Shown here piece by piece: positions 5,978 through 45,624 of a stretch of 64,000 bases of DNA (position 1 is the first letter of the stretch; every line of letters begins with the position of its first letter). A model generated the notes under the pieces. It was not told where the DNA came from. It was given only the letters and a program-made list of their open reading frames with translations, and made no database searches. This DNA comes from an uncultured Planctomycetia bacterium (GTDB lineage: Bacteria; Omnitrophota; Gorgyraeia; Duberdicusellales; 4484-171). A program made the position numbers and the translations under genes. The DNA lies in contig CAZABB010000006.1 of the NCBI GenBank assembly GCA_964483625.1, forward strand, positions 2,129 through 66,128, given 5' to 3'.

Positions 5978-6086
5978 ATCTTCTTTCCTCCTGGGGTTAT
6001 AGTAAAATTTTATTAGTTAAATTTTACTATTTATACCTAAAAAGTCAATGGCATTTTTCCCTGTGTCTCAAGGGATCCGCTAAACC

Positions 6087-12607: not shown

Positions 12608-12766
12608 ATGCCAAAAAAAGGGAAATCAAAACAATCCATAGGGATAACTATAGATAAAGAAATCCTTAAGAAATTGGACAATTTCTGCAAGAAAAATTTT
12701 AATGCAAAACGGTCAGGCGTAATAGAGCAGGCCACAAAGAAATTCTTAGAGGAGAATTCAAAATGA
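12608..12766 (+). CDS. ribbon-helix-helix (CopG/Arc-like) DNA-binding protein
   Basis: 52 aa: MPKKGKSKQSIGITIDKEILKKLDNFCKKNFNAKRSGVIEQATKKFLEENSK, a beta-strand then two helices. GGAG RBS. Its stop overlaps the methyltransferase start (ATGA). Missing from the ORF track. Confidence 0.5.
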   Translation: MPKKGKSKQSIGITIDKEILKKLDNFCKKNFNAKRSGVIEQATKKFLEENSK

Positions 12767-18947: not shown

Positions 18948-19136
18948 ATGGTTAAAAGCAGGCTGATTAATGTGCGGTTGTCGGGGAGACAGTATGATCT
19001 CCTCATCAACCGTATGGAGTGCATGGGCTACCTTAACATGAGCCAGTTCATCAGGGATTGCGCTCTTCGGGATGACCTTGCCACCCTCAAGCTTCTGCGG
19101 GACATTCACGAGAGGGTGGTCGGCAGTGCCTCTTAA
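18948..19136 (+). CDS. MobC-like mobilisation (relaxosome accessory) protein
   Basis: VRLSGRQYDLLINRMECMGYLNMSQFIRDCAL matches the MobC family pattern (VRLTxxExxxLxxxAxxxGxSxSxYIRxxAL). Confidence 0.45.
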   Translation: MVKSRLINVRLSGRQYDLLINRMECMGYLNMSQFIRDCALRDDLATLKLLRDIHERVVGSAS

Positions 19137-20146
19137 CCCTTCATCAGTGCTTGTATCTCGGTTAATTCTTGTCTTTGCCTGCGGTATTCTTCTTCGGTTA
19201 TCCTGCCGTTACGGAATTCGTTGAATAGCTGGATGTATTGCCCTGCAAATATTCCGTTTGTGTCTGCTGGGTGCTGATTGGGTGGAGTCCGGGTGCATGG
19301 ATTATCCCCATTCTCTTGGTGCGTTGGCCGTGCCTCGGCGTATGGGTCTATGTGATCCATTGCCGAAGTCAGGTTCTTCTTGCCAAGCTGTGTATATGTC
19401 CTCGCCGTCAGCTCGACTTTCTCGTGCCTCATCAGCCTTCTTGCGGTCTCGAGATGTGTGCCCGAATTGATGAGCATTGAGCAGAAGAATTTTCTGAAGC
19501 TGTGGAAGCCGTATTTCTTTGCCTTGTAGCCGTTCTCTTTGATGTATAGGGTCTCAAGAAGTCCCGATTTTTGGGTGGCCTTCTCGAGCTCCTTTGACAG
19601 CGTGGTTACTGCTATCGGTTTCTCCGCCGTCTGGTGCGAGGGCAGGAGATACTTGCTGTCTCTCGTGTAGTGTGTCCATTTCTTCAGGAGCGGTATCAGG
19701 GACTTCGGGAAATACACGTCCTGGGGCACTCCTTTCTTCGTGACTATTAGCCTTATCCTGCATTCGTCGAAGTCTATGTTTTCTTTGAGGATTTCGCTTG
19801 TCTCTTCCCGACGGGTTCCCGTCACGCATGATACAAGGCTTGCCATCATGCAGTTGAGGTTATCCATGTGCCTGAACAGAGGGGGGAGGTCTTTTGGTCT
19901 GAACGGCTCCTTGCCTCTGTTCTTCTGAATCCATCTTTTGGGTCTCGGGTTGATTAGGCAGCCTTTTTCCCTGAATGCCCTAATCAGGAATTTCTTTTGA
20001 CGCTGCGTGATTCCTCCCGTCAGTATCTGCTCGTAAAGTTCCTCCGCTGTCAGATTGACCGTTTTCTGTATGTCCTTTTTCCCGTGTTGCTCGGGCTGTT
20101 TATTTGTTTGTTTATTTGGCTGTTTATCGGTTTGCATATTCGCCAC
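19133..20146 (-). CDS. tyrosine recombinase, catalytic-domain ORF (probably frameshifted gene)
   Basis: Catalytic residues in GTRREE...HSFRKFF...LMRHEKVELTARTYTQL (R..HxxR..Y). Low-complexity N-terminus KQPNKQTNKQPEQ encoded by a gtttgtttattt tandem repeat. Confidence 0.7.
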   Translation of the reverse strand: MANMQTDKQPNKQTNKQPEQHGKKDIQKTVNLTAEELYEQILTGGITQRQKKFLIRAFREKGCLINPRPKRWIQKNRGKEPFRPKDLPPLFRHMDNLNCMMASLVSCVTGTRREETSEILKENIDFDECRIRLIVTKKGVPQDVYFPKSLIPLLKKWTHYTRDSKYLLPSHQTAEKPIAVTTLSKELEKATQKSGLLETLYIKENGYKAKKYGFHSFRKFFCSMLINSGTHLETARRLMRHEKVELTARTYTQLGKKNLTSAMDHIDPYAEARPTHQENGDNPCTRTPPNQHPADTNGIFAGQYIQLFNEFRNGRITEEEYRRQRQELTEIQALMKG

Positions 20147-21351: not shown

Positions 21352-21921
21352 ATGTATAAAAAAATCTTGTTTCTTGGCAAGAAAACATACAAAAAAGACT
21401 ATTCTAAGGCAATTGTTTTAAAAGCAATTAAAGACAAATATTCTTCTATCACAGAACTGCCTGACTCCAAGGCGGCTTACGAGAAGTGCAAAGTATCTCA
21501 CTTTGACATAATCATAGTTGATATGAAGATGCCTGGCCAGGAAGAAAAGCAATGGCTGGAAAAGATTCGCCTTGAGCATGAGGATATTCCGATAGTCATG
21601 GTTGAAGAATTCTCAGGGCAAGCCAAGTTTGTTGCAAAAGAAGCATTTGTCGAATTAGCTTTTTCCGGAGCTGATACCGAAAAGAATAAAAAGAAGGATA
21701 ACAATAATAGAGATATGGATAAGGAATTAGAGGCTATGTTGGAGAAAATACCTATTGAGCAGAGGCAGGAAGCTGAACAGCAGATTAGAAGCATGTATGA
21801 AGAACTTTATAAAATTCGTGAAATAGGTGACAGAATCCACAGTATTTATGAGCATACTCATGCTCAGGTAGAGGCTACTATGGAGAAAGCGAAGGAATAC
21901 GGTTATGTCCCAAGGCCCTAA
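21352..21921 (+). CDS. receiver-like (degenerate CheY-like) domain protein
   Basis: DIIIVDMKMPGQEE...IPIVMV pattern, C-terminal coiled coil. Confidence 0.4.
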   Translation: MYKKILFLGKKTYKKDYSKAIVLKAIKDKYSSITELPDSKAAYEKCKVSHFDIIIVDMKMPGQEEKQWLEKIRLEHEDIPIVMVEEFSGQAKFVAKEAFVELAFSGADTEKNKKKDNNNRDMDKELEAMLEKIPIEQRQEAEQQIRSMYEELYKIREIGDRIHSIYEHTHAQVEATMEKAKEYGYVPRP

Positions 21922-27241: not shown

Positions 27242-27517
27242 AGTAATTGATTAGTGAGGACAAGATTGTTTTTAGATTTATCACCCAAAGATTATGTTTA
27301 GTTAGAGTAGCTTTTCCGTTTCGGCCAGAGCTTGCGCTCTTTTCCCCGAAACGGACTGGAAACGGAGGCAGTGCAAAAATATCCCCTTGGGGCCTGTCGG
27401 CATGAGGCATCAAGGTCATTTTCGCTCTTTTTTTCTCTGCTGGATACTTTCTGAACGGATTTTGTCGTGAAATTTTAAGAATTTTTGAATTTTTTTTGAT
27501 TTTGTCATATAATGCCC

Positions 27518-27546
27518 TTGACACTGACAAAATGATATGGTATATT
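27518..27546 (+). promoter_or_regulatory. consensus sigma70 promoter (TTGACA-17-TATATT)
   Basis: TTGACA at 27518-27523, 17-nt spacer, TATATT at 27541-27546, about 115 nt upstream of the 27664 gene. Confidence 0.5.
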
Positions 27547-27663
27547 TACTTTGAAAACGCTTTCCGGGCACTGACCACGGACTCGCTTAATGCGAGGCAG
27601 CTTTGTAAAGCTACTGTTCCTAAAGGACAGTGGCTTTTTTGCTATATGGGAAGAGAATGACGA

Positions 27664-29261: not shown

Positions 29262-29705
29262 ATGAAAAGTAACTGGAAGAAAAACAATTTTTCTCAAAGA
29301 GACATGTGTCTTGAACTGCTTGCCGGCAAATTCGGGCTTCCTCTCGAGGAAGATTCGTTCTGGACAAGACGCCCCCGTTTCGTTTATGCCGAAAGCGAGC
29401 TGATGAACTCAAAGACCGAAGCGGTGCTCACCCACAGAAACGGCAGGCTGGTATGGACGGAGAAAATTCAGACTGACAACGGCGAGACCTTCGAGATTTT
29501 GATAGAGACAAACAGGAATCATCCTTACTCTGTCCCGAGAGTTTTCATCACACCGAAGCTTTCGCTGAACGGCAGGGGACGTCCCGACGGAAGTGTGGGG
29601 CTCTGTTCCTGCGATGAATACGTCGAGAAGATGTCGGTGTATGACCTCAGGCAGAAGGCCGTTGATTTCCTCAACGAGCATTTGGCAAATCAATACGGGA
29701 GGTAA
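29262..29705 (+). CDS. UBC/E2-like (ubiquitin-conjugating-enzyme fold) small protein, putative
   Basis: GGAGG RBS. NHPYSVPRVFITPKLSLNGRGRPDGSVGLCSCDEY aligns with the E2 core YPFKPPKVxFTTKIYHPNIxxNGSICLDIL, giving a candidate catalytic Cys. Confidence 0.5.
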   Translation: MKSNWKKNNFSQRDMCLELLAGKFGLPLEEDSFWTRRPRFVYAESELMNSKTEAVLTHRNGRLVWTEKIQTDNGETFEILIETNRNHPYSVPRVFITPKLSLNGRGRPDGSVGLCSCDEYVEKMSVYDLRQKAVDFLNEHLANQYGR

Positions 29706-30628: not shown

Positions 30629-31915
30629 ATGACCACACCTACTCATATCGCAGGAGCTACGGCAGGCATGCTTCTCATAGCAGTCGCCTTCAGGTGCCTG
30701 AACGTATCATGGGCGACAATTCTTTTCACGATGTTTGCGGGACTGCTTCCCGACATAGATAACGTTAAGTCTATAATCGGGTGGCTGTTTCACAGGCTTG
30801 TTTCCATTCTGTCTTTCGGCAAAGTGAATTTCTCGAAGCTTGTTCAGCACAGGGGATTCTTTCATTCACTGCCTTTTGTGGCCCTGCTCTCATTCATACT
30901 TTATTTCATAAGGGCTGATTTGATTCCTTATCTCCTGATTGGAATGCTCTCTCACATTGTCCTTGATTCATTCCAGAAGAGAGGTGTCAAGCTTCTGGGT
31001 TTTGGCAATGCCTGGGGAAGATTCTCCCTTAATTGGAACATGCTCTTGAGGTCTTCGGGAGAATATTCAGTCCTTGCTTCCTGCATCATGATTATTCTTG
31101 TTTCATCGGCGGTAATCTCGAAAGGCGGGACTAATCACATCATCAGGAAAGCGTTAGGCACGCTCAAGGCCACTGTTGAGGATATCAATGACCTGAAGAA
31201 TTATGAGTGCTTCCTTGTCGTGAATGATAGCGGTGTCCAGAGTGAGTATCTTATAATCGGCTCTTTTGGAAAGGATTCAGTCATTGTCCTTGACGGGAAT
31301 TCTCCTCTGTCATTCGGCTACCGCCATAACTGCCAACTGAAAGCGGATAACAAGTCTTACGTCAGGAAAGACAGGAAGATGAAGACTATCGAATACAAGT
31401 TTATCCTGAAGGATAAATCATTCAGGCATCTTTATAACAAGATTGACAGCTCGTATTTCTATTATTTTTCCGGCAGTGCTCTTCTCAAAGATTCAAAGGA
31501 AATCCCGTTTTTTTATAACAGGTATAACACTGTTTCTGCTTCCGGAAAGAGGCTGAATTTTGAATTTGCGAGGCTTGAGGATTTGAAGGTTTATGGGATT
31601 GAGGACTCTGAAATACTGCTCGGCGATTTTGTAATAACTTACAGAATCGCCGAAGGCCAGAATCCTCCTCCGCTTTCGGCAAAGATTACCGAAGCGGTTT
31701 CCGCCGATGTTGAAGCTGTCGAGAAAAGGATTTCGGAATTGAAAGGAATCATAAACAGTCCTGACCTGAAGCGGGAAGTCGAAAACATATTCAATGTCGA
31801 TTCAGAGGAAGCGGAAATCTACCTGCGGGTTTTCAGGAGAAAGGCTGAAAAGCTGTTAAAGGAAGAAGAAACCAACCTTCTGAGGATTCACTCGATAAAA
31901 AAGGATATGCCATGA
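30629..31915 (+). CDS. DUF457/YdjM-like membrane-bound metal-dependent hydrolase fused to a ~250-aa soluble domain
   Basis: About 4 TM helices with conserved HxxxD (HIVLDSF) in the N-terminal 170 aa. The C-terminal domain is unknown. Confidence 0.5.
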   Translation: MTTPTHIAGATAGMLLIAVAFRCLNVSWATILFTMFAGLLPDIDNVKSIIGWLFHRLVSILSFGKVNFSKLVQHRGFFHSLPFVALLSFILYFIRADLIPYLLIGMLSHIVLDSFQKRGVKLLGFGNAWGRFSLNWNMLLRSSGEYSVLASCIMIILVSSAVISKGGTNHIIRKALGTLKATVEDINDLKNYECFLVVNDSGVQSEYLIIGSFGKDSVIVLDGNSPLSFGYRHNCQLKADNKSYVRKDRKMKTIEYKFILKDKSFRHLYNKIDSSYFYYFSGSALLKDSKEIPFFYNRYNTVSASGKRLNFEFARLEDLKVYGIEDSEILLGDFVITYRIAEGQNPPPLSAKITEAVSADVEAVEKRISELKGIINSPDLKREVENIFNVDSEEAEIYLRVFRRKAEKLLKEEETNLLRIHSIKKDMP

Positions 31916-32769
31916 AAATTCTCAAAGAATACGAAAGGCACATGAAGATTTGCAGGAAAAGCCCTGCCACTATCCGGCAGTATGGTAATGACGTGAAGCT
32001 TTTCTGCAATGCTTTCGGTGCGGATATCTTCAAGAGTTCGGGCAAGGACGTTGATGGATTCATTGAGTGGCTCATTGACAGGAAGTGCCAGAACGTAACG
32101 ATTGCGAGAAAGATAGCATCGCTCAGAAGCTTTTACGTCTTTCTCACAGCGAAAGGCTTCGTGAAAAATAATCCATTCCTCAAAGCTCCAAAGCTGAGGA
32201 TCCCCCGGAAAGACCAGAGGGTTCTCACGGGAGAAGAAGTAAATCGGATATTTGAGACCCTGGGGGATTATCCTCCCACTCTTAAAGGCAGGGTGACTGA
32301 TTGCATCCTGCATATCATGTATTTTCTCGGCCTGCGGGTCTTTGAGGTTGCGAGCCTCGATGTCTCAAGCATCTCGGCTCCGCCTGAGAGTTATCTGAAC
32401 TTTATCGGGAAAGGCGGGAAACAAAGAAGCCTTCCGCTTGTCCATGATAAGCTTGTCTGCTCTCTTGATGAATGGATGGAATTTCGGAAAAAGTTTCCCG
32501 GAGTCGAGGCCCTTTTCATCAGCCGTAACCTCAGCAGGATTTCGGTAAGGACTATCCAGAGGTGGATAAAGTGTCTCGGAGTAAATTCCGGCTTGGGGGA
32601 TTGTTTGACGCCTCACGTTCTGAGAAGGACTTTCGCTACCCGGCTTCTTGAGCAGGGGGCTGACCTTTTCTCGGTTGCGGATTTGATGGGGCACGAGAGC
32701 CTCACTACGACAAGGAGGTATGCAGTGGTAACAGACAAAAAGCGGAAGGGCACGCTTCTCTTACTATGA
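31912..32769 (+). CDS. tyrosine recombinase (XerC/D-like)
   Basis: N-terminal SAM-like domain (TIRQYGNDVKLF...IASLRSFYVFL) and catalytic R...HVLRRTFATRLL...GHESLTTTRRY. Its start overlaps the upstream stop (ATGA). Confidence 0.8.
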   Translation: MKILKEYERHMKICRKSPATIRQYGNDVKLFCNAFGADIFKSSGKDVDGFIEWLIDRKCQNVTIARKIASLRSFYVFLTAKGFVKNNPFLKAPKLRIPRKDQRVLTGEEVNRIFETLGDYPPTLKGRVTDCILHIMYFLGLRVFEVASLDVSSISAPPESYLNFIGKGGKQRSLPLVHDKLVCSLDEWMEFRKKFPGVEALFISRNLSRISVRTIQRWIKCLGVNSGLGDCLTPHVLRRTFATRLLEQGADLFSVADLMGHESLTTTRRYAVVTDKKRKGTLLLL

Positions 32770-32836
32770 TTATAACTATATTAGTTGCACATTTAATTAT
32801 GATTAATTTTTCCGGTCAGAATCCGTGTTTTTACGG

Positions 32837-32861
32837 TTTTCTGGCTGGTTCTGCCAGAAAA
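32837..32861. other. candidate recombinase core site (9-7-9 inverted repeat TTTTCTGGC-tggttct-GCCAGAAAA)
   Basis: Perfect 9-bp inverted arms with a 7-bp spacer 68 nt after the Xer-like stop. Additional GCCAGAAAACCG / CGGTTTTCTGGC copies lie at 32832-32846 and 32913-32924. Confidence 0.4.
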
Positions 32862-32971
32862 GAATTTCTTTCACGACTGAAGTCTGGCCGTTTCTTTAAC
32901 TCGCTCTTAACAGCCAGAAAACCGTATTATTTGGCGGTCAGATTTATGTCCTTAATCCGGGAGGTGTCCTG

Positions 32972-33838
32972 ATGATAAAAAAATTATTCAACCGCATCAG
33001 GGATTCCTTTGGAAAAATTAATGAGGAGTCCTATGACGAAAATGCAGTCCTTGATGAATCCCCTCATGTCTCAGATGAGGGCGAAAAGAAGGTCTGCGTT
33101 CTTGAGTTCTACGCTTTCATGCGTAAGCTGTATGAGAAGATTCTTGGCAGGCTGGGGTTCTCGTATTTCATAACAGGGAGCGAAGAAGAATTTTTATCAT
33201 CCCTTGAATGCTGTTCTGTTGCCGTTGTTGATGACAACCAGCCTGACATCAGGGGCTTTCTTCTGGCCTCAAAACTGAAGGCTGAACGCCCTGAGCTTCC
33301 TGTAATTGTATGCACAGCTAACGCTTCGCTTGAAGCTTATGAGGAGTTCAAGGTCTCTAAGGCTGATGCTCTGCTGTTCAAGCCTGTTTCTGAAAGCGAG
33401 CTTGCTGGCTGCATTAATAGGGTTCTTGTCAAGTCCTCTGCCGAGCCTGTTGTTGAAGAAAAAGTAATTCCGAAAAAGCGTGGCAGGAAACCTTTTACTT
33501 TTCTTGATATCGCTGAAAAGCATGTCTGGGAGTTTTCCCAGAGCGGGCTTTCAAAGGCCGAGTTTTCAAGGAAGAACAAGCTGAGCCTTTCATCTCTGAA
33601 AAACGAGTTCAGGATTATTGCACTGCCTGAAAGCGTGAAGAAACTTGTAGGCGAAAACATCGACTGCTTCAAGAAGTCCTTTTTTGAGCACATCACCAAG
33701 CTCAAGGATGAACAGAGCATCCTTGATTTATGCTCTGAAATTATCGAACGTGGTAGCAAGGGGTCTTATTATGATCTCTCTGCCCTGAAGCAGAGAGTCA
33801 ATGAGTATCTTTCATTGGAGAAAAAAGATGAGGTTTGA
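32972..33838 (+). CDS. receiver (REC)-like domain protein
   Basis: VAVVDDNQPDIRGF...LPVIVCTAN...DALLFKPV with a C-terminal helical domain. Confidence 0.5.
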   Translation: MIKKLFNRIRDSFGKINEESYDENAVLDESPHVSDEGEKKVCVLEFYAFMRKLYEKILGRLGFSYFITGSEEEFLSSLECCSVAVVDDNQPDIRGFLLASKLKAERPELPVIVCTANASLEAYEEFKVSKADALLFKPVSESELAGCINRVLVKSSAEPVVEEKVIPKKRGRKPFTFLDIAEKHVWEFSQSGLSKAEFSRKNKLSLSSLKNEFRIIALPESVKKLVGENIDCFKKSFFEHITKLKDEQSILDLCSEIIERGSKGSYYDLSALKQRVNEYLSLEKKDEV

Positions 33839-34769: not shown

Positions 34770-34974
34770 GAGGTGATTAATTTGAGAAAGAAAAAGCCTG
34801 ACATGAAGTTCAGAGGTAAGTGCGGAAAGTATGATTTTGAGCTTTCCGTCACCTTTGCGCCGTTTCCTTCCTCAAAGGAAAGGGACAGGGCTTATCGTGT
34901 GTGGGCTGAGACATTCGCTGAAAGCTGTAAGAAAGGGAGAAAGGTTTAAGTAATCTTCTTGAATATAAATCTCT

Positions 34975-35487
34975 ATGCAAACTAAAGCACAGTTAAACAG
35001 GCAAAAGGACGGATATCGTAGAGAGAATGAAATGGTGGATTATTATTTGTCTAACGGGTTTAAAGTGCTTGGGTATAAGAATTGCGATGATATGAACATG
35101 ATATCGTTTTTCCTGCCTTTTGAGATTGCGCTAAAGAAAGTCTTTGGTTCTTGGAATTCTCTTGCGGAGCTCGTTCGGTCAAATACTGTTGAAATGTTAA
35201 GGCTATCAAAGGATGGGGAGCTGGAAGTGCTTGAAGTCAAAACTAAAGCCGATATTAAGAAAGATAAAGCATCTCATAAATTTAGATTTGATTGTCAGCC
35301 AGAACAGATAGAAAAATGTGAACGTGTGCTTGAGAAAGGAGTTGCGGTTATTTGGGTTTTTTATATAGAGACTTATAATAAATACATAGAAGTCCCTTTT
35401 GGTGAATTGCATTTTTCACCTAAGCAATGCAAGGTTAAATTACCTGAAAAATATCGAGACCTTAATTTGTGGAATGTTAAAGAATAG
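34975..35487 (+). CDS. PD-(D/E)xK nuclease-like hypothetical protein
   Basis: KDGELEVLEVKTK resembles the DGxLhhhEhK nuclease core. Confidence 0.4.
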   Translation: MQTKAQLNRQKDGYRRENEMVDYYLSNGFKVLGYKNCDDMNMISFFLPFEIALKKVFGSWNSLAELVRSNTVEMLRLSKDGELEVLEVKTKADIKKDKASHKFRFDCQPEQIEKCERVLEKGVAVIWVFYIETYNKYIEVPFGELHFSPKQCKVKLPEKYRDLNLWNVKE

Positions 35488-35622
35488 GCGTCGCTCAGAT
35501 ATCCGGATAATTCCCTATCCATCGCCAAAAGTTTTTCCTGTGTTTGGGGCACATTTCCTTCCTTAGCTCTTTCAGTGGTTTGTCTGACGCTTCGATTTTG
35601 GTTAAGCAGTTGCAGGTTTTCA

Positions 35623-35631
35623 TGATATAAT
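35623..35631 (+). promoter_or_regulatory. possible extended -10 promoter (TGaTATAAT)
   Basis: TGnTATAAT element 120 nt upstream of the mcrB-like start. No good -35. Confidence 0.25.
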
Positions 35632-35751
35632 GTGAGCTATTAATATTTATATTAGTTCTTGACAGTTTGTCGGAAGTTTTTCGGCATTTTGATAAAGTTT
35701 TTATATGAGTAGGGGTTTATGCCCTGTTAATTATTTGGGAGGGGGTCTGTT

Positions 35752-38091
35752 ATGGATAAAGCTGTTCTTGTATCAAAAATTAAGGAGTTGAGCAATCTTG
35801 CTAATAAGCTTCATGGCTTTGAAGATGATGAGGAAAGTTTCCTTGTTGCGATTAAGGGGCTTGACAGGAAGTATCTTGAGGGCGAGCTTGAGAAATTTCG
35901 TGAAGGAAGCATTAGCTGGAATGGCGTTTTGAAGCCTGTTAATTTCCTTAAATTCTTGGTAATAGATAAGGTTCTTGATGACAAGGATGTTTCTCTTGAG
36001 ATTATTGACGAGTTCAAGGATAGGATTCTTAAGCTGGATGTTGATTATTTCAAGGATTATCCTGATTTCAAGGAGGCAATGCTCAAGCTTGAGAAGGGTA
36101 AAAACTTTTTTTGGCAGTGGAACAATATTTTCAAGATTCTTTTTTATGTCTATTATGACCAGCATAAGGACAGCGTCAATTCTTCTCTGACCGAGATTGC
36201 TGACCATTTCAAGACTGTTTTGAATATGAAGGATTCCAAGACAACGATTAACGGGTTTGGGTGGAATAATAATTATGGCTCGAGCGATTGCTGGATTGCT
36301 CTTTATCCTCCTGATAGGGACAGCCATCAGAAGGCTTATCAAATCTTTTTGAGGGTGAATCCTGTAAACGAGCTTGTTTATGGAATGACTAACGGCGCAA
36401 AGATTGCGGAGAACAAGAAGCTTGAGAAGCAGGATGGTTCTAACGTTGATGTAGACAAGCTCGAGAAATTTCTCTTTGAGAAAGCTAAGCCTGAGTATGA
36501 AAAGCTTAACGCCTCTGTTAAACCTGAGCCTGACGAAGAAGAGGTTGACGAAGAATTAAGGGTTGTCGATGAGAAATGCCCCAAGAATGTCATTCTTTAC
36601 GGCCCTCCTGGGACTGGAAAGACTTATATGGCTTACGAGGAGGCTGTTCGCATTGTTGATCCTTCCTTTTCGTGGAAGGACAGGAAGGCTCTCGTTGCTA
36701 AATTTCGTGAGTTTCAGGATAGCGGTTATATCACTTTTGTTACTTTCCATCAGTCTTTCAGCTACGAGGAATTCATTGAGGGTTTCAGGTATGACAAGGA
36801 AGAAAAAATGCCTATGGTTGAGTCTGGCGTGTTCAAGACGCTTGTCGAGAGCGCAAGGTCTGACTATGTAAGTCCTAAGAAGAAGATTGATTTGAACCTT
36901 GCTAAGAGGAATGTATTCAAAATGTCGCTCGGCAACACTCTCAAGGAAGATGAGGATATTTATGATTTCTGTATGCAAGAAGACATCATAGCCATTGGTT
37001 GGGGGCAAGATGTTAACTATACGGGAGCCGATACTAAGGAAAAAGTCGCCAAGAAGTTCAAAGAGCATGAAGGAAGCGATAAAGATTCTGTCTTTAATGT
37101 AACAGCGATTCACTTCTTCAAGAATATCATGAAGAAAGATGACCTTGTATTTGTCTCTAAAGGAAACCGTTCCTTGCGTGCTATTGGTCGTGTTGTGGGG
37201 GAATATTATTATGATGAAAATGTACCTATAAATTATCGCCATTTCAGAAAGGTCGAGTGGCTTCTTACGGACAGCAATATTCCCGTAGAGAAAGTTATGA
37301 AGAAGAATTTCAGCCAGCAGACTATTTATGAGATAAGCAAGAGCTGGCTGCTTGAACAGAACCTTCAGGAGCTTCTTGCTAAACCAGCAGACAATAAGAA
37401 AGAGGTCAGGAATTATGTGCTGATTATCGACGAGATTAACAGGGGGAATATCTCTAAGATTTTCGGGGAGTTAATCACTCTTATTGAGGATGATAAAAGG
37501 CTTGGCATGGAGAACGAGATGGTCGTCAAGCTTCCATACAGCAAGGAGATCGATTTCGGGATTCCTCCCAATATCTATGTTATCGGCACTATGAATACTG
37601 CTGATAGGAGTATAGCTTTGATGGATGTCGCTCTTAGACGAAGGTTTAGTTTTAAGAGGATTGCTCCAGAATCCAAGATTATCTCTGACTTGTTGTCCGA
37701 GAAGGAGGTCGATGGGGATTTTATTGAGATTTTGCAGAAGTCCTTTATTGCCTTGAACAAAAGGATTAAGGTGTTGCTTGATGAAGACCATGTTATAGGG
37801 CATAGTTATTTTCTGAAGATTGGGCCTGAAGATTTCGAGTATGATCTTCATGCTGTCTGGTATGACAAGATTATTCCTCTGCTTCAGGAATATTTCTATA
37901 ATGATTGGGATAAGTTGAGGCTTGTTCTCGGCGAGCATAATTCTCAGAAACGTAGCGGTTTCATTAAGGTTTTAGAGGCTGAATACAAGGGCATTTTCGG
38001 CTCTGAGTTTGATGAGGAGTATCCTTGCGAAATTGTCCGCTATGAGCCTGATTTGTTCTCTCAGGTATTGAAGAACACATTTATCGGATAA
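35752..38091 (+). CDS. mcrB: McrB-family AAA+ GTPase with unknown N-terminal domain and internal PUA/EVE-like insertion
   Basis: Motifs GPPGTGKT, FHQSFSYEEFIEG, LIIDEINRGNISKIFGE, GTMNTADRSIALMDVALRRRF are near-identical to E. coli McrB motifs, but about 175 extra aa lie between FHQS.. and IIDEINR. GGGAGGGGG RBS. Confidence 0.8.
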   Translation: MDKAVLVSKIKELSNLANKLHGFEDDEESFLVAIKGLDRKYLEGELEKFREGSISWNGVLKPVNFLKFLVIDKVLDDKDVSLEIIDEFKDRILKLDVDYFKDYPDFKEAMLKLEKGKNFFWQWNNIFKILFYVYYDQHKDSVNSSLTEIADHFKTVLNMKDSKTTINGFGWNNNYGSSDCWIALYPPDRDSHQKAYQIFLRVNPVNELVYGMTNGAKIAENKKLEKQDGSNVDVDKLEKFLFEKAKPEYEKLNASVKPEPDEEEVDEELRVVDEKCPKNVILYGPPGTGKTYMAYEEAVRIVDPSFSWKDRKALVAKFREFQDSGYITFVTFHQSFSYEEFIEGFRYDKEEKMPMVESGVFKTLVESARSDYVSPKKKIDLNLAKRNVFKMSLGNTLKEDEDIYDFCMQEDIIAIGWGQDVNYTGADTKEKVAKKFKEHEGSDKDSVFNVTAIHFFKNIMKKDDLVFVSKGNRSLRAIGRVVGEYYYDENVPINYRHFRKVEWLLTDSNIPVEKVMKKNFSQQTIYEISKSWLLEQNLQELLAKPADNKKEVRNYVLIIDEINRGNISKIFGELITLIEDDKRLGMENEMVVKLPYSKEIDFGIPPNIYVIGTMNTADRSIALMDVALRRRFSFKRIAPESKIISDLLSEKEVDGDFIEILQKSFIALNKRIKVLLDEDHVIGHSYFLKIGPEDFEYDLHAVWYDKIIPLLQEYFYNDWDKLRLVLGEHNSQKRSGFIKVLEAEYKGIFGSEFDEEYPCEIVRYEPDLFSQVLKNTFIG

Positions 38092-38095
38092 GAAA

Positions 38096-39415
38096 ATGGT
38101 CTTAAAAAATAAAGTTATATCGCTTTCAGAATTTGAAGAAATTCCCCTCTCTGAGCTTGAGGTAAAGATTGGCAAACGAGGCATCAGGCTTTTGAAGAGG
38201 ATTAATTCCCGGAGCGGTTGCGAGATTTTTCGCCTCTTGCATGATAGGGTTAAGGCTTCTCATTATGTGGGTTTTGTCCGTGTTCTTGGTTACACGATTC
38301 AGGTCGTGCCTAAAGTTTTTGGGGAGGACAAGCCGGATAATCTCCATTTCCTTCTTTGCCTTTTGAGATATACAAGGAAGATTCAGGTCAAGGAGCACGA
38401 AATCGGTAATCTGGGGAAGGTCAAGGATGACTTTTTCGAGATATTGATTTTCTTGTTTGCTAAGGCTCTTCGGGAGCTTTTGCGGAGGGATTTTAAAAAG
38501 ACGTATGTTGTCCGTGAAGAAAATAGTCCGTTCTTGAAGGGAAAATTCTTAATCAGTGAGAATGTCAGGCGGAATATTTTTGATGATTCGAGGTATTGTT
38601 GCAGGTTTGATGAATTCACTGAGAATAATTTGATGAATCAGCTCTTTAAGTATGTTGTTTCGATGCTCATAAGGATATCGAGGTCTGTGTCCAATAAGAA
38701 GCTCCTTGAGGATATCCTCATATATTTATGTGATGTTGAATTGGTGAATATTACCTGTGCGGATATTGATAGGATTCACTTTACCCGTCTCAACAATTCA
38801 TATGAGCCGTTGGTAAACCTGTGCAGATTATTCCTTGAAAACATGAGCATCCGTTTCTCAGCTTCCAAGCTCGAGACTTTCGTGTTCATGTTTGACATGA
38901 ACAGGCTGTTTGAGGAATTTGTCTTTGAGTTCGTTAGAAGAAACAGGAGTAAATTGTTTATTGGCGGGGAAAACGAAGTTGTTTTTGTTAAAGACCAGAT
39001 TTATATTGGCAAGCTGTTCGACGAATTCAAGATGCGAGGGGATATTCTCATTAAGGACTCTTCAGGCAGACTTATTTTGTTGGATACGAAGTATAAAACT
39101 CTTGATTCATACGCCCTTCATGGGCGTTTGTCTCAAGCAGACTTTTATCAGATGTTTACTTATTCGACATCGCAAGAACAAAAGTATGAGGATGTAATCT
39201 TGTTGTATCCTTCCAATGAAGAGGTGGCCGAGCCTTTCACTGATAAAGAGCTTAGGCATGTTATAGCTGGAAAAGAGACTGTTAAGATTCATGTCAGAAC
39301 AATCAGTCTTACTAAAATATTCAATGCGGAAAAGAAGTCAATTAATGAGACGGCGATGATTGAAGAGTTAAATAAAGCATTTATGTTGCCTTCTGCTAAT
39401 TTGGTATTGAGGTGA
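38096..39415 (+). CDS. mcrC: McrC-like restriction endonuclease subunit
   Basis: Starts 5 nt after the mcrB-like stop. C-terminal PD-(D/E)xK core LILLDTKYK, McrC-like length. Confidence 0.75.
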   Translation: MVLKNKVISLSEFEEIPLSELEVKIGKRGIRLLKRINSRSGCEIFRLLHDRVKASHYVGFVRVLGYTIQVVPKVFGEDKPDNLHFLLCLLRYTRKIQVKEHEIGNLGKVKDDFFEILIFLFAKALRELLRRDFKKTYVVREENSPFLKGKFLISENVRRNIFDDSRYCCRFDEFTENNLMNQLFKYVVSMLIRISRSVSNKKLLEDILIYLCDVELVNITCADIDRIHFTRLNNSYEPLVNLCRLFLENMSIRFSASKLETFVFMFDMNRLFEEFVFEFVRRNRSKLFIGGENEVVFVKDQIYIGKLFDEFKMRGDILIKDSSGRLILLDTKYKTLDSYALHGRLSQADFYQMFTYSTSQEQKYEDVILLYPSNEEVAEPFTDKELRHVIAGKETVKIHVRTISLTKIFNAEKKSINETAMIEELNKAFMLPSANLVLR

Positions 39416-39447
39416 CAAGGTAGTGACGTTTTGCCGGAGGAATAATA

Positions 39448-40305
39448 ATGAAAAAACCTATGATTTCCAGATATATTTCAGATGAACGAATTTTTGAGGA
39501 TATTATCTGCAAAGATTTTGAGTTCCTTGTGGATAAGATAAAGCAGTCTGGCTTTGAGTATTCGCTCGAAATCAGGGAAGATTACTTTAATCTGTATTAT
39601 CAGGGTAACAGTATAGGCAAGATTACCTTTCGAGCTCGCAACAGGGATTATAAAGTTGGAATCAATAAGAAGTTTGTTGATAAGAAGATGAATGACCGTT
39701 TTGATGGTCAGAAATCAGGTGACTATGTTGATTTCTTCATTTCTCCAAAGAAATTGCAGTCTTTTTTCTCTGAAGCTAATTTAAGGTTTCTCAGCCAGAA
39801 GGTCAGGGACGTGAATTATCAGGAGGAGATTGCTTTTGAGCAGATGATTATGACTGATAACGTCGGCAGACCTGATTTTGTCGTAATTGACAGGCAGGTG
39901 GTTGACCACTCGAGCAGGGAGAAGATAGATTTGCTTGGCCTCAAAAGGGTTTCTGGGGATAATTTTCAGTTTTGCGTGCTTGAAGTAAAGCTGGGAAAGA
40001 ATGAGGAATTGAAAGGCGCAGTGAGCGGTCAGCTAAAGCGATATGTCAGGAGGGTTACAGACCATTTTGAAGAATATAAGCAGTGTTATGAAAAGAATTT
40101 TGAGCAGAAAAAGATATTGGGTTTGATTAATAGCATAGAAAAGGTTTGTATTGTTAAGCCTGTCCTCGGCATTGTTGTTGTAGGTGGCTATGGCGGTTTA
40201 GCAGAACCGAACATAAAAGAACTTAGAGGCAAGGATAAAGATATCAGGATTCTTCACATAAAGAACGAGATAGACTTTAACAAAGTAGAGCCAAAATGCA
40301 ATTAA
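39448..40305 (+). CDS. NucS/DUF91-like PD-(D/E)xK nuclease
   Basis: GRPDFVVID...FCVLEVKLGKN nuclease core in the C-terminal half. Confidence 0.55.
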   Translation: MKKPMISRYISDERIFEDIICKDFEFLVDKIKQSGFEYSLEIREDYFNLYYQGNSIGKITFRARNRDYKVGINKKFVDKKMNDRFDGQKSGDYVDFFISPKKLQSFFSEANLRFLSQKVRDVNYQEEIAFEQMIMTDNVGRPDFVVIDRQVVDHSSREKIDLLGLKRVSGDNFQFCVLEVKLGKNEELKGAVSGQLKRYVRRVTDHFEEYKQCYEKNFEQKKILGLINSIEKVCIVKPVLGIVVVGGYGGLAEPNIKELRGKDKDIRILHIKNEIDFNKVEPKCN

Positions 40306-41561
40306 CTATTTATCGTGGCACTAAGGAAATCGGCGGTTCTTGTGTTGAGCTTCAGACCAGGAATGCAAGGCTTCTTGTCGATTTCGGTCTTCCTTTGAGT
40401 GATGAGACTTTTTCTAAGGACGTTAAGAAGAAGTCCATGAAGGATTTCATAAGGGATGGATTGCTTCCTGACGTTGAGGGATTATATGATAAGCCGGGCT
40501 TTGACGCTGTTCTGCTGAGTCATGCCCATCAGGATCATTACGGCCTTCTTTCCTTTGTGCATCCCGATATTCCAATCTGCATGAGCCGGGGCACGAAGGA
40601 GCTTGTCGAGCTCAGCTATCTTTTTGGCCAGACAAACTGCAACCTTAAGAATGTCAGGGTCGTGGAGGCTTGGAAGACTTTTGAAATAAAGGATGTCAGG
40701 GTGACTCCTTACCTTGTTGACCATTCAGGCTTTGACGCAATGGCTTTTCTCATAGAAGCCGACGGGAAACGAATCTTCTATACTGGCGATTTCAGGGCGC
40801 ATGGAAGAAAATCGGTGCTTTTCCGCTCCATGATAGAAAATCCTCCGAAGGATATTGATTACCTGATTATGGAAGGCACAATGCTTTCAAGGGAAAATGA
40901 GGAACGCAAGACCGAGGATGATGTCGAGAAAGAGCTGGTGTCTCTTTTGAAATCTCAAGGCAATCTCACTTTTTTGTCCTGCTCGTCCCAGAATATCGAC
41001 AGGCTTGTTTCTGCATACAGGGCGTGCATGCAGACGGACACTTTGTTTGTAGTTGACCCCTATACTGCTTATGTTCTTTATGAGCTGAAAGACATCTCGA
41101 AGGGACTCCCTCAATATGATTGGGGCAGGAACATGAGGATATTTTTCATCCCGAACAAATACACGGACAAAGTTCTTAATGGGAAAAAGATGTATCAGTT
41201 TAAGAGGGCGAAAATCACAAAAGAAGAAGTGTTCTCTCTTGAGAAAAAAATGCTTGTTAAGGATTCTTACACCATGAGGAATATCTTCAGGAACAAGCGG
41301 TTGCTCAAAGGCACTTCAGTCATATATTCGCAGTGGGAAGGATATCTTGATGACATAAAGGAATTCTGGGATAAGAATGGGGTTAAGATTATACAGGTGC
41401 ATGTCTCAGGCCACGCTTACGTTGCGGACTTGATTAAGTTCGCACAAGCGGTAAAACCTAAGAACATTATTCCTATACACACTGAGAGGGCAGAAAGATT
41501 TAAGGAATTATTCGATGCAAATATAATCTCTGTCAATGATAGGCAGAGAATAGATTTATAA
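40296..41561 (+). CDS. metallo-beta-lactamase fold beta-CASP nuclease
   Basis: MBL motif SHAHQDHYG, beta-CASP motifs (YTGDF; ...HVSGHA). Overlaps the previous gene by 10 nt. Confidence 0.7.
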   Translation: MQLTIYRGTKEIGGSCVELQTRNARLLVDFGLPLSDETFSKDVKKKSMKDFIRDGLLPDVEGLYDKPGFDAVLLSHAHQDHYGLLSFVHPDIPICMSRGTKELVELSYLFGQTNCNLKNVRVVEAWKTFEIKDVRVTPYLVDHSGFDAMAFLIEADGKRIFYTGDFRAHGRKSVLFRSMIENPPKDIDYLIMEGTMLSRENEERKTEDDVEKELVSLLKSQGNLTFLSCSSQNIDRLVSAYRACMQTDTLFVVDPYTAYVLYELKDISKGLPQYDWGRNMRIFFIPNKYTDKVLNGKKMYQFKRAKITKEEVFSLEKKMLVKDSYTMRNIFRNKRLLKGTSVIYSQWEGYLDDIKEFWDKNGVKIIQVHVSGHAYVADLIKFAQAVKPKNIIPIHTERAERFKELFDANIISVNDRQRIDL

Positions 41562-41777
41562 GGAATTCTGGTGAACTATAAAGAAATACCTATGGATGTC
41601 CGTATTGACCGTATCGGCTCTCTTCTCGCTAAGGCCGTTCATCTGGCTGTCTTGAAGGAGAGGTCTGATTTCTTTGTTGATTCTTCTGGCCGGGACATAT
41701 TCGGGGAGTCTTCGGATTGTTGATTTTCCTCTCTGTGGAAAAGATTTATATAGCTGGATTCTAAGGAAGGTTCGTTT

Positions 41778-42503
41778 ATGAAAAGAAAAAAAGGTTCTTC
41801 TGTCCGCTGGTTCGGCGACTGGGCGAATGAATATGATTCTACCTTAGGCAGTATGGGGTTTCATTGCGGTCTGCTGGATTTGGTCGTTTCGGTCTCGGGC
41901 GTCAGGGATTCTGACAGGGTTCTGGACATCGGGTGTGGGACTGGCCTTCTGAGCCTCAGGTTTTTGAGGGCTTCGGAGTGTTCGGTTGTGGGTGTCGATA
42001 ATTCCCGAGAGATGATTGGGATATTCCGTGAGAAGATTGAGAAGCTTGGCATCGGAGAAAAAATGAGACTCAGCCTGATGGATGCCTCTTCTCTCAGGTT
42101 CGGCAAGGAAAGTTTTGATGTTGTGGCTTCTACTGTTACGCTTCATCACCTAAAAGACAAGCTGAAATCCCTGAAAACTATCCATAAGATTCTCAGACCC
42201 AGCGGTAAACTGGTTATCGGAGATATCGACATGGACACTACCGGAAAGCTTACTGATGAAAGAAGGATGAGAAGGATTCTCGATGTCCTTGCCGATGAGT
42301 GGATTTCTGCCCTGAAAGAGTCGGGAATTGACAGCTTTGAGAGGATGTTTGACAACGGGAAGAAGCATATCCTTAACGACGGGGAATATTGCATCGACTT
42401 TAAGCAGTGGTCGAGATTGTGCAAGAAAGCAGGTTTTAAATCAGTATCAGTAAAATCTGTTCCAGGACACAGCAGGTTTAAGGTTCTGCTCGCAAGAAAG
42501 TAG
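41778..42503 (+). CDS. class I SAM-dependent methyltransferase
   Basis: Motif I VLDIGCGTGLLS, Methyltransf_11/25-like. Confidence 0.65.
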   Translation: MKRKKGSSVRWFGDWANEYDSTLGSMGFHCGLLDLVVSVSGVRDSDRVLDIGCGTGLLSLRFLRASECSVVGVDNSREMIGIFREKIEKLGIGEKMRLSLMDASSLRFGKESFDVVASTVTLHHLKDKLKSLKTIHKILRPSGKLVIGDIDMDTTGKLTDERRMRRILDVLADEWISALKESGIDSFERMFDNGKKHILNDGEYCIDFKQWSRLCKKAGFKSVSVKSVPGHSRFKVLLARK

Positions 42504-42675: not shown

Positions 42676-42730
42676 TTAAAAAGGAAAAAGATTATTAATC
42701 TTGAGAACATGTACTGGAGTAAGGTCGATA

Positions 42731-43621
42731 ATGGCAAAGAAAGAAAAACATGGCTGGATTTGGGATGAACAGGAGAAAGAATTGATTCTTTCTCTTAAAA
42801 GCAAACTGCGAACGAGATGTTTGCAGCTTAATACGCAATTATCACGATTTGAAGAATCTTTACCTGCCTATTCTGAAGAGGCTAATAACACTGCAAAACC
42901 TTATCTAAATCTTGCAGACGAATTGTTATCGCTTGATGGACGAACAGCAGGACGGAAATATCAGCAGATGTCGCCTGAGGATGTACGGGGGGCACTTAAA
43001 AGACTGGAAATCCTGTATCAGGCATGGGTATTGTTTACTAATAGGGCAGACATACAGGAAGCTATTCGAGAGAGAAACAGGGATATGAGAAAAGAAGCAC
43101 GAGGATTTAAGTCTGCCGCTTTGAAAAAGATAGAGAGCGAAGAATACAAAAACCAGCTTGAGATGATAACGGATGCTTTGATAGTTCAGGCCGGTCAAGT
43201 GGTTCCTCTCAGCGGAGGGTTTCTCTCTCCATCTAAATTAGACAAAAAAGACAAAGAAATCCTGCAGCGGCTTCTCCTCGTTCATTTCGTCAGATTCTCA
43301 TACGAATTCCATGCAGACAGAAAAGAACAAATGCGGAAATTCTTAGAAGCGCATCCGGAGGGGACATTAAAGGATGTGATAACCCATGCTGTTTATATAG
43401 TCATTAAGAGCCATATTCTAAAATCTTCCCCCATGATTTCTCCTCAAAAACACATCCAATCCCTGTTTCTTAACTCTTTTGAAGGCCTGACTCGAAGTTT
43501 TGCGGAATGGAGGGATAAGAAACAATCTCTCAAAAAGCTTGATAAGGATTATTTCACCATTTTAGGGGCAGATTTTTCATTAACAGCTAAATCGGAAAAG
43601 GCTAAGCCACGAAAGGGATAG
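42731..43621 (+). CDS. hypothetical protein
   Basis: About 296-aa helical protein. ATG at 42731. Confidence 0.4.
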   Translation: MAKKEKHGWIWDEQEKELILSLKSKLRTRCLQLNTQLSRFEESLPAYSEEANNTAKPYLNLADELLSLDGRTAGRKYQQMSPEDVRGALKRLEILYQAWVLFTNRADIQEAIRERNRDMRKEARGFKSAALKKIESEEYKNQLEMITDALIVQAGQVVPLSGGFLSPSKLDKKDKEILQRLLLVHFVRFSYEFHADRKEQMRKFLEAHPEGTLKDVITHAVYIVIKSHILKSSPMISPQKHIQSLFLNSFEGLTRSFAEWRDKKQSLKKLDKDYFTILGADFSLTAKSEKAKPRKG

Positions 43622-43993: not shown

Positions 43994-44569
43994 TTATGCA
44001 CTTTGAATAGGTGGCATTCTTTGCAGAGGGTCATCGTATTTTTTTCCCAGTCTTTCCACCATCCCCTTTCTCATCTCATGCCTTCCATTCTCCCAGTCCA
44101 GCAGTGTAGAAGGGTCTATCCCTAACTCCTCTGCCATCTCCCTGTGGGTCTTCAGCAGGCTCAGGCGTAGTGCTCTCAGAACAATTCCTTTATTAGCTTC
44201 TCCATTCATTAGTCTTTGTTTGATCTCTTCGTGGTTGAAGAGAAGGGACTTTTCTATGCTGTATCTTTTTGACAGGGTTTCTTTGAGGACTTCCTGCGGT
44301 ATCTGTATCTTTTGTAGGATTAGTTTCAGGCTTCTTATCTCTGGTGTCCGTTTGTCCTGTTCCCATGCGAGGAGTATGTCCTGACTGCATCCGATTTGTC
44401 CCGCCATCTGTCCGGCGGTCATTTCCCTGTCTATCCTTTCCTTTCTCAGATACTGCCCGAAAGTCTTTGGTTTTGTGGTGTAATAGCCTCTCTGTTCGAG
44501 CAGGTCTAATTCAAGCTGTATGGTGATGGTAAGTGTTTCCCGTCGGTCGGTTTGCTTTGTGTTACGCAT
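43994..44569 (-). CDS. XRE-family transcriptional regulator (two HTH domains)
   Basis: Two HTH_3-like repeats ([40 protein letters not shown] and [28 protein letters not shown]). The annotated ATG lies in the attR core (cCATGc). Confidence 0.6.
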
Positions 44570-44585
44570 GGACAGGGGTTCATCG
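44553..44585. repeat. island right junction (attR-like): gtgttac-GCATGGACA-ggggttcat
   Basis: The comM N-fragment frame (AAMNPCPC) switches to island sequence after the CPC codons. Repeat partner of the 10,621-10,629 site. Confidence 0.5.
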
Positions 44586-45624
44586 CCGCAATCGATAAAA
44601 ATCGGGCCGGTAGCCGGACGCGGCGTGAAGCCCGGGCGATATGAACCGACCCTTCCTCAATCGGCTGCCGTAACGCCTCCAGAGAACTGCGGGAAAATTC
44701 CGGCAGTTCATCGAGGAACAATACGCCGTAATGAGCCAGAGTAATCTCCCCCGGCTGAACGCGTGTCCCCCCTCCCACCAGCGCCACTCCCGACGCGGTA
44801 TGGTGAGGATTGCGGAACGGTCGCCTTTTAAGAAACGGCCGCTGAGGGTCAAGCTCACCGGCAATGCTGTAAATTCTGGTAACCTCAAGCGCTTCCTCAT
44901 AGGACATATCCGGCAAAATCGTCGGGACCCGGCGAGCCAGCATCGTCTTCCCGACCCCGGGCGGGCCGATGAGAATCATATTATGCATCCCGCTTACGGC
45001 GATCTCCATCGCTCTTTTGGCAAATACCTGCCCTTTTACCTCATCAAAGTCAACGGGATAACGAGGCGTCACTCCTTCAAGTTTATCCTCAAGAGACGGC
45101 CGGACCGGTTCTTTAGGAATCGTCCCCGAAAGAAATCCTACCGCATCTTTCAGACTCCTTACCGGATATACCTCTACCCCTTCAACCAGAGATGCCTCAA
45201 GAGCATTGCCCTGGGGAATAATCAATTTCTTCTTGAGTTCTCTCGCTTTCAGCGCGGCGGGAAACGCACCGGTTATGCCGCGAACACCTCCCTCCAAGGA
45301 AAGTTCACCCAGAATTAGACAATCGGAGAACACGACGGATATCTGCCCTGACGCCTGCAAGATTCCCAATGCGATGGCAAGATCGAAATGAGAACCTTCT
45401 TTTTTCACGTTCGCCGGGGCGACATTCACCGTTATCCGCTGCGCCGGGAAAAGATAGCCGCTGTTTTTTACGCCGGAACGGACCCGATCCCGGCTTTCCT
45501 TAGCCGCGGTATCAAGCATCCCGACCAGAGATACAGCCGGCAGGCCGCGCTGGGAATCGACTTCGACCTCGACCCGATGAAGCTCAAGACCAGAATATGT
45601 GAGAGAAAAAAGCTTGGCGACCAT
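44566..45624 (-). pseudogene. comM: comM/yifB Mg-chelatase-family ATPase, N-terminal fragment (island-interrupted)
   Basis: ChlI/Lon-like N-domain, Walker [17 protein letters not shown], Walker [12 protein letters not shown], ends AAMNPCPC at the junction. The ORF continues 20 codons into island DNA to a stop at 44506. Confidence 0.8.

Follow-up and report, generated by a model that had tools for sequence, protein, structure and literature searches.

Compact recombination sites of 100-200 bp, which lie beside the gene of their recombinase and contain a short motif repeated several times, in either orientation and at unequal spacings, are known from Tn3 (res), Tn4430 (IRS, with TnpI) and the cer and psi systems, in which ArgR or ArcA acts together with PepA. 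In Tn4430, TnpI (284 aa) acts at four copies of a single motif beside its gene; Tn3 res doubles as an operator, and at psi the Xer reaction requires the response regulator ArcA. Proteins of the ParB family form a second group of interest; they bind palindromic sites through a common DNA-binding fold, as with KorB at OB of RK2, VirB at its boxes in Shigella, Noc at NBS and the Box A of P1 parS. Here we describe a spacer of about 200 bp between the gene of an Xer-like tyrosine recombinase and that of a response regulator in a 64,000-nucleotide stretch, hereafter the window, of contig CAZABB010000006.1 (positions 2,129 to 66,128 of the forward strand, assembly GCA_964483625.1), which comes from an uncultured bacterium. 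The spacer resembles the res, IRS and cer/psi sites in its compactness and in its repeated short motif, and psi in having a response regulator at hand; it differs from all of them in its eight strictly alternating motif copies, in having no demonstrated core, in standing 3' of the recombinase gene, in the dedicated receiver-ParB-domain fusion encoded beside it, and in belonging to an element that appears to be integrated by a different (serine) recombinase. A first-pass annotation of this DNA had proposed a perfect inverted repeat in the spacer as a candidate core site of the recombinase. We found that this palindrome is made up of two neighbouring motif copies, B and C, in an array that contains eight of them, and we favour, with about even confidence, the reading that the spacer is a control region to which proteins bind at the DNA level, the downstream ParB-type regulator being the likeliest binder.

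Protein searches and contig retrieval showed that the recombinase family is rare, with about 15 distinct lineages at 39-87% identity. Its genes stand in a conserved order, namely a lipoprotein of ~225 aa, an AAA-like protein of ~300 aa, a YdjM-domain protein, the recombinase, a spacer of 180-235 bp and the response regulator, which was identical wherever the related contig was long enough, and an APH-type kinase is usually next after the regulator. We aligned 13-14 spacers of related loci (given below as L001, L002 and so on) and built a weight matrix for a 12-bp motif, consensus CRGnCAGAWWWn, from the relatives only, with the window left out. When the window was scanned with this matrix, the three best matches among 128,000 positions all fell in the spacer, which held 7 matches of at least 8 bits in 200 bp (corrected Poisson P ~2e-5). 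Eight copies were recognised in all, strictly alternating in orientation (Table 1), and such a cluster is unique in the window; GYCAGA occurs 6 times within 150 bp of the spacer, where the window averages 0.15. In all main-clade loci the core of the motif (C, G, CAGA) is kept as sequence, beyond complementarity. By eye, the spacing from A to B (CAGA-N19-TCTG) is constant in nine lineages checked, L006 and L098 being different, and the distance from E to F, CAGA to CAGA, is 24 bp in every main-clade locus checked. The palindrome formed by F and F' has a single exact match in the window and lies where the DNA of the spacer is best conserved. L009 and L010, which form a divergent clade, have the same layout with a different motif, CTCCA(A/G)A.

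Table 1. Features of the spacer and its surroundings, in window coordinates; bits are scores of the relatives-only matrix
Feature	Position	Strand	Description
Second copy of GTCGTGAAAT	27464-27473	+	exact 10-mer, 46 nt 5' of the -35 box at the head of the module
Xer-like tyrosine recombinase gene	31912-32769	+	285 aa; last gene of the upstream operon of overlapping genes
68-codon open reading frame (ORF)	32766-32972	+	fills the spacer; ATGA overlap at start, TGATG overlap at stop; judged non-coding
AT-rich block TATTAGTTGCACATTTAATTATGATTAATTT	32779-32809	+	just past the stop codon; TAGTTG.A.ATTT and TTAATT conserved in alignments A3, A4 and A7
Motif copy A, CGGTCAGAATCC	32813-32824	+	15.2 bits
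16-bp perfect inverted repeat, TACGGTTTTCTGGCTG / CAGCCAGAAAACCGTA	32832-32847 and 32911-32926		encloses 63 nt
Motif copy B, CAGCCAGAAAAC on the - strand	32836-32847	-	15.8 bits, joint best of the window; holds the left arm of the 9-7-9 palindrome
Perfect 9-7-9 palindrome, TTTTCTGGC-tggttct-GCCAGAAAA	32837-32861		made of copies B and C; lineage-specific; flagged as terminator-like, tail GAATTTCTTT
Motif copy C, CTGCCAGAAAAG	32851-32862	+	8.8 bits, weak; relatives have GnCnTGAAA here
Central inverted repeat, conserved in the family	32853-32877		consensus GTCGTGAAA-N7-TTTCACGAC; here GCCAGAAAA-GAATTTC-TTTCACGAC
Motif copy D, CGGCCAGACTTC on the - strand	32879-32890	-	11.8 bits
Motif copy E, CAGCCAGAAAAC	32911-32922	+	15.8 bits
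Motif copy G, CCGCCAAATAAT on the - strand	32926-32937	-	6.9 bits, weak
Motif copy F	start 32935	+	14.1 bits
16-bp palindrome F/F', GGTCAGATTTATGTCC	32936-32951		family form GGnCAGA-WT-TnTGnCC; 7 nt 5' of the ribosome-binding site
Motif copy F'	start 32941	-	8.4 bits
Ribosome-binding site GGGAGGTG and regulator ATG	32959-32974	+	GGAGG conserved in nearly all loci
Response regulator gene	32972-33838	+	receiver domain, disordered KRGRKP linker, ParB/Noc/KorB-type DNA-binding domain

Three more motif matches (11.3-13.7 bits), all on the - strand within 170 bp, cluster at 41638-41806, surrounding the gap between a hydrolase and a methyltransferase gene. This cluster lies on one strand, shows no alternation and has no central repeat, and we judged it to be chance or unrelated rather than a second array.

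The regulator encoded downstream of the array matched Pfam Response_reg (1.3e-9) and, below threshold, HTH_ParB (E=0.011). Since a structure search with the full-length protein returned receiver domains only, its C-terminal domain was modelled separately; the AlphaFold2 model of the C-terminal 118 residues had a pLDDT of 88.7, and the top 50 Foldseek matches in the PDB were all ParB, Noc, Spo0J, SopB, KorB or VirB, the best of them at TM 0.7-0.78 and an rmsd of ~2 A. On this model, the regulator has a ParB/Noc/KorB-type DNA-binding fold. Unlike ParB-family factors, it is without the ParB N-terminal CTPase domain and has a receiver domain instead, and no relatives were found on known plasmids or phages. 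In the divergent clade (L009, L010), it differs at four predicted recognition-helix positions (SESRLHAE vs SLSxLKNE).

We favour a binding region at the DNA level because the array is unique and highly non-random and its motif is conserved as sequence in every copy, which stems would not need, and because no single RNA fold is conserved and the centre of F/F', only 2 nt long, would be too short for an RNA hairpin. Moreover, the divergent clade changes the motif and the recognition-helix positions of the regulator alike, and GTCGTGAAAT recurs 5' of the main promoter of the module in three loci, both of which argue in the same direction. The regulator was taken as the likeliest binder because a ParB-type domain is encoded downstream and because the GTGAAAT/ATTTCAC arms of the central repeat match the half-site of P1 Box A and VirB, (A/G)(A/T)GAAAT (PMC6410309). 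Further resemblance to the operators of the ParB family is seen in the palindromic form of the sites and in their number, multiple sites being present in promoter regions there. F/F' has adjacent half-sites of a different sequence. The array fills the spacer that separates the recombinase operon from the operon of regulator and kinase in an uncharacterised module on integrative islands. We propose that dimers of the regulator would bind inverted half-sites through the flexible linker; as candidate sites we consider the F/F' palindrome by the ribosome-binding site, further members of the array, the Box-A-like GTGAAAT arms, or a combination of these. Such binding would set the expression of the regulator's own operon and the read-through from the recombinase operon.

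The module begins with a near-consensus promoter, TTGACA-17-TATATT (27519-27547), near which GTCGTGAAAT is kept in L007 (exact) and in L002 (as GTCGTGAAAC) with variable flanks. A looser GACAAAA repeat flanks the -35 box by eye. The -35 box is also bracketed by a perfect 9-bp inverted repeat, ATTTTGTCA/TGACAAAAT.

Several points weigh against a DNA-level operator for the regulator. The array motif is unlike known ParB-family sites, and to our knowledge no such site resembles CRGnCAGA. The Box-A-like arms stand in the opposite order to parS and VirB sites, facing outwards, and are 5-7 bp apart rather than 0-1, and in the window the left arm is lost. No sigma-70-type promoter that an operator could control was found in the spacer, nor anywhere in 32300-33400 on either strand, by a scan for promoters of this type, and the array motif has no matrix match of at least 6.5 bits at the upstream promoter of the module. 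The arms of the 16-bp inverted repeat co-vary beyond the motif core, and copies D and E show a compensatory change between L008 and L145; to account for both, a pure binding-site model would have to invoke gene conversion or else a selection that keeps the sites identical. Co-inheritance of the recombinase with the left two-thirds of the spacer fits sites of the recombinase too. The assignment of motif to protein could be reversed or wrong.

The recombinase itself matched Pfam Phage_integrase (5.5e-32) and a SAM-like N-terminal domain; its best NCBIfam matches were XerC, XerD and XerA, all far below cut-off, and R142, K167, H235, R238, H261 and Y270 are invariant in 13 homologues. It is thus predicted to be a catalytically intact enzyme, and it is Xer-like, as the first-pass annotation had presumed in naming the palindrome a candidate core recombination site. 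The palindrome does lie at 32837-32861, starting 68 nt past the last base of the recombinase stop codon (32769), and its perfect 9-7-9 arrangement agrees with that of a tyrosine-recombinase core. Two arm-like copies had been said to flank it: GCCAGAAAACCG was confirmed at 32913-32924, and CGGTTTTCTGGC was found at 32834-32845 instead of 32832, where it is the left arm plus 3 nt and no separate copy. Further arm-like copies are present all the same, as members of the array.

Like dif, difSL, loxP and FRT, the palindrome has inverted arms around a short spacer, 9-13 bp around 6-9 bp in those sites; unlike them, it is unconserved, has no known partner site and carries its arms within an eight-copy array. 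Perfect 9-bp inverted repeats with spacers of 3-10 nt number 9 in the window (3 with a spacer of 7), against 2.4 +/- 1.9 in Markov-1 random sequence, so that a single one is unremarkable here. The other two with 7-nt spacers are at 22489 and 33702, the latter inside the regulator gene. The palindrome's arms pair fully (9/9) in the window alone; L001 and L002 reach 8/9 with one additional G.T, and ten further loci have 1-5/9. Over 13 loci 62.5% of cells are paired, which 419/500 shuffles matched, and no covariation was seen. Nor is the arm symmetry kept at the same place in loci with orthologous recombinases. The lack of conservation follows from the right arm, GCCAGAAAA (32853-32861), which occupies the left-arm position of the family-wide central repeat of the relatives. 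That position reads GTCAGAAAA in the window's subclade and GCCAGAAAA in the window itself, a change that completed the palindrome and weakened the older central repeat to 5/9. Motif copy C, and with it the perfect palindrome, arose only in the window's lineage, by mutation of this left arm towards the array motif. The 25-bp palindrome is therefore a lineage-specific by-product and no conserved core, and it is probably not a functional unit of its own.

Were the palindrome itself a crossover site with its partner elsewhere in the genome, its perfect geometry beside a recombinase gene would be accounted for; comparison with the relatives has already largely refuted this idea. The right arm is a recent derivative of another element, comparable perfect repeats stand elsewhere in the window, and a search of the 64 kb found neither the 25-bp site (up to 3 mismatches allowed) nor its 14-bp arm a second time, so that we give a stand-alone core hardly any credence. 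Two matches to the palindrome in a viral collection both belonged to one unrelated signal-peptide coding sequence and were dismissed as chance. The first-pass annotation had named a plain transcription terminator as the alternative that would refute its core site, and a pattern scan indeed flagged the 9-7-9 hairpin (9 pairs, 4 of them G-C, loop of 7), the tail GAATTTCTTT being interrupted and beginning with GAA. A hairpin with a U-tract is not retained in relatives of the same gene order, in which the central hairpin precedes ACAT/CATC and not U; a plain terminator is accordingly unsupported, since the hairpin is not conserved.

The central repeat is the element that is conserved in the family. 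It starts 72-93 nt past the recombinase stop codon (83-87 nt in 12/14 main-clade loci), and its arms are complementary at 7-9/9 positions in the 11 loci outside the window's subclade, at 6/9 in L001, 7/9 in L002 and 5/9 in the window. Its spacer is 7 nt long (8 nt in two loci) and different in sequence in every lineage, and its right arm is nearly invariant, as one arm is also better conserved in dif, difSL, loxP and FRT. Conserved inverted arms around a spacer of constant length and free sequence, which mark a core site, are thus found here in the family, with only 5/9 in the window. In viral contigs, the pattern of the central repeat had 32 matches, which is about chance level for 15 specified bases.

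The comparison of close relatives gave further information on the inheritance of this region. Between the window and L001, flanking genes differ at 0-3% of nucleotides and 31839-32895 at ~15%. L002 and L007 share 87% identity in the YdjM protein and in the regulator and only 54% in the recombinase, and their similarity returns just 5' of TTTGGCGGTCAGAT. In L002, positions 5950-7010 form a sharply bounded block with ~45% divergence from L007 inside an otherwise near-identical module. We conclude from these alignments that the recombinase and the left two-thirds of the spacer (to ~32895-32929, about copy E) are exchanged as a cassette, copy F and the regulator remaining with the right-hand side; the sharp borders of the divergent blocks indicate allelic replacement of the recombinase. 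Both a module of recombinase plus site and homologous crossovers within the best-conserved flanking DNA would fit this exchange.

These results bear on a second reading, in which the spacer would be a recombination site of the res, IRS or cer kind for the Xer-like enzyme, with a core (most plausibly the central repeat at 32853-32877 or the convergent A/B pair), accessory sites, and the regulator as architectural or regulatory cofactor; it would serve to resolve multimers or to carry out some other intramolecular reaction of the island after excision. The enzyme is intact and Xer-like, and the island's own serine integrase leaves it in need of another job. The central repeat has the geometry of a core, namely 9-bp arms, a constant 7-nt spacer of free sequence and one near-invariant arm; the array is present once per element; and the recombinase travels with the spacer as far as ~32895-32929 as one cassette, like recombinase-site modules elsewhere. 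However, the central repeat is only 5/9 complementary in the window, ordinary homologous recombination would suffice for a cassette whose boundaries lie in the most conserved flanking DNA, eight alternating sites at spacings of 2 to 28 bp match no known tyrosine-recombinase layout, and neither a partner site nor a recombination product was seen. We consider such a site unlikely.

A combination of both readings can be formulated, in which the spacer would be a signal-controlled recombination module, with an Xer-like core (9-N7-9) set within alternating sites for the receiver-ParB-domain regulator. The timing of the recombinase's action would depend on phosphorylation, for which the neighbouring APH-type kinase is a possible source, and the recombinase with its sites would be swapped between islands as a specificity cassette. 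We know of no described regulator-gated Xer-like system with its own ParB-type cofactor, and we regard this combination as rather unlikely.

In addition to the palindrome, we observed a longer symmetry that the first-pass annotation had not reported: the perfect 16-bp inverted repeat consists of the extended left arm of the palindrome and the copy at 32913. Its arms are paired at 72.4% across the relatives vs 64.7% in shuffles (0/500 as high), and the covariation score was reached by 1/500; compensatory changes in the arms occur in L002 (TATGG/CCATA) and L097 (GGATTT/AAATCC). Likewise, D and E are linked by a compensatory T-to-C / A-to-G change between L008 and L145. These observations, together with the stability of the spacer, argue for a reading in which the region acts as RNA, that is, as a structured intercistronic leader, attenuator or processing site, terminator included. 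Mutually exclusive hairpins (A:B, B:C, B:E, D:E, E:G) would control read-through or translation of the regulator operon, and the 9-7-9 hairpin may be a weak terminator in the window's lineage, being terminator-like by the pattern scan. Indeed, 10/11 spacers were far more stable than their shuffles (z -2.5 to -5.5), the apical A:B stem alternates between A-U and C-G, the divergent clade retains its central hairpin via two G.U pairs (read from the sequences), and a U-rich tract lies 3' of copy E in most loci.

Against RNA stand the lack of a common fold and the conservation of every copy in sequence. The RNAalifold consensus reached only -6.3 kcal/mol, and its covariation term was unfavourable; long-range pairing partners vary by lineage (B:E, A with the E-F linker, A:D, A:B); helices A:B, D:E and E:G taken individually showed covariation not above shuffles; and the 9-7-9 hairpin is at shuffle level across relatives. 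Transition-type mismatches had no consistent strand bias, and those of the central repeat (0 of the G.U type for the + strand, 15 of the type for the - strand) favour the opposite strand. No Rfam 15 family matched at its gathering score, and at E values up to 5 only matches like miRNA precursors and the L20 leader appeared, at 19-24 bits vs cut-offs of 59-88, the best being miRNA-precursor models with 24 bits vs 80-88. Moreover, GTCGTGAAAT also stands alone 5' of a promoter. Taken on these grounds, a function as RNA is unlikely.

The 16-bp repeat suggests a further possibility, namely that the recombinase flips the enclosed 63-bp segment and thereby switches the regulator operon. The repeat stands beside a tyrosine recombinase gene and just 5' of a regulator operon, and its arms are kept identical through the compensatory changes in L097 and L002. 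Similar inverted repeats by a tyrosine recombinase gene, 5' of a signalling operon, are found in fimS and in the Clostridioides difficile cmr and flg switches with RecV, and cmrRST in particular is a tyrosine-recombinase switch 5' of a response-regulator operon (PMC6837544). Unlike those switches, the segment here contains no sigma-70-type promoter-like site and stands in a single orientation in every related locus whose spacer sequence is available, four independent assemblies from one population among them (assemblies, not reads), and in other lineages the long repeat is built from different segments. Furthermore, 63 bp is very short for synapsis. An inverton is consequently very unlikely.

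A different kind of function would be coding, as the 68-codon ORF could specify a 68-aa protein translationally coupled to both neighbours through its ATGA and TGATG overlaps. The frame is open in 8/15 loci with a complete spacer, which is above chance expectation for AT-rich DNA, and on one contig a gene was called there. It is interrupted in the other seven (L002, L006, L008/L137, L145, L098, L009, L140), and in several loci its start codon is CTG or GTG, while L143 lacks a start. Differences between the window and L001 change 12/68 residues through just 14 nucleotide changes. Codon-position differences across loci are 0.374/0.369/0.342 in the ORF, without the periodicity of the recombinase (0.34/0.23/0.60) and the regulator (0.375/0.334/0.571), and the ORF was rejected as a protein gene on these flat statistics; we think its translation extremely improbable. 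Even taken jointly, the inverton, the stand-alone core and the small ORF are decidedly unlikely.

The host is a bacterium, as judged from EF-G, PurH and a PcrA-like helicase. The module lies on a low-G+C island of ~34 kb, which splits a comM/YifB-like Mg-chelatase gene into a C-terminal part (10141-10668, - strand) and an N-terminal part (44506-45624, - strand), and is, by this arrangement, evidently integrated into comM; no tRNA or tmRNA was found as integration target. A large serine recombinase gene (566 aa, 10553-12253, - strand) stands at the left end of the island. Since the island carries its own large serine recombinase at its end, the Xer-like enzyme is probably not its integrase. Also encoded in the left half of the island are a restriction-methylase fusion together with a specificity subunit (12763-16321), another tyrosine integrase (19133-20146, - strand) and a second receiver-domain protein, a short one (21352-21921).

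What lies to the right of the module is variable: McrBC in the window, and in other loci ApeA, OLD-family or further genes. A variable cargo slot (34870-42440), bounded by the kinase gene and a conserved gene for 306 aa (42701-43621), contains in the window a protein of 170 aa, McrB-like and McrC proteins, another protein of 285 aa, a hydrolase of the metallo-beta-lactamase fold acting on RNA/DNA, and a methyltransferase; in L001 this slot is occupied by Yip1-like and ApeA-like genes. A 147-aa gene (29262-29705) with a weak E2/UBC-like PADLOC match is present in the window and in L007 and absent from the otherwise 97-99% identical L001. The defence-system models of PADLOC gave no significant match for any module protein, and we found nothing specific in the literature on this gene combination. 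Contigs with the module (L004-L010, L137) were binned to Sphingomonadales, Woesearchaeota, Thermoplasmata, Auribacterota, Nitrospinota and Chloroflexi, which indicates horizontal transfer or mis-binning of a mobile island.

The module of lipoprotein, AAA-like protein, YdjM-domain protein, Xer-like recombinase, receiver-ParB-domain regulator and APH-type kinase is thus rare and unannotated; around it, on islands with their own integrases, lie restriction genes and other genes of defence. The spacer is its only obvious cis-element and is therefore the place where the function of the module can be tested. Further, the case illustrates that a palindrome, though perfect and adjacent to a recombinase gene, can be an accident of one lineage. 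If the recombinase acts at this array under control of the regulator, the module would represent a new coupling of signalling to site-specific recombination; if not, it would still provide a clear instance of a transcription factor of the receiver-ParB-domain type together with the operator array that belongs to it.

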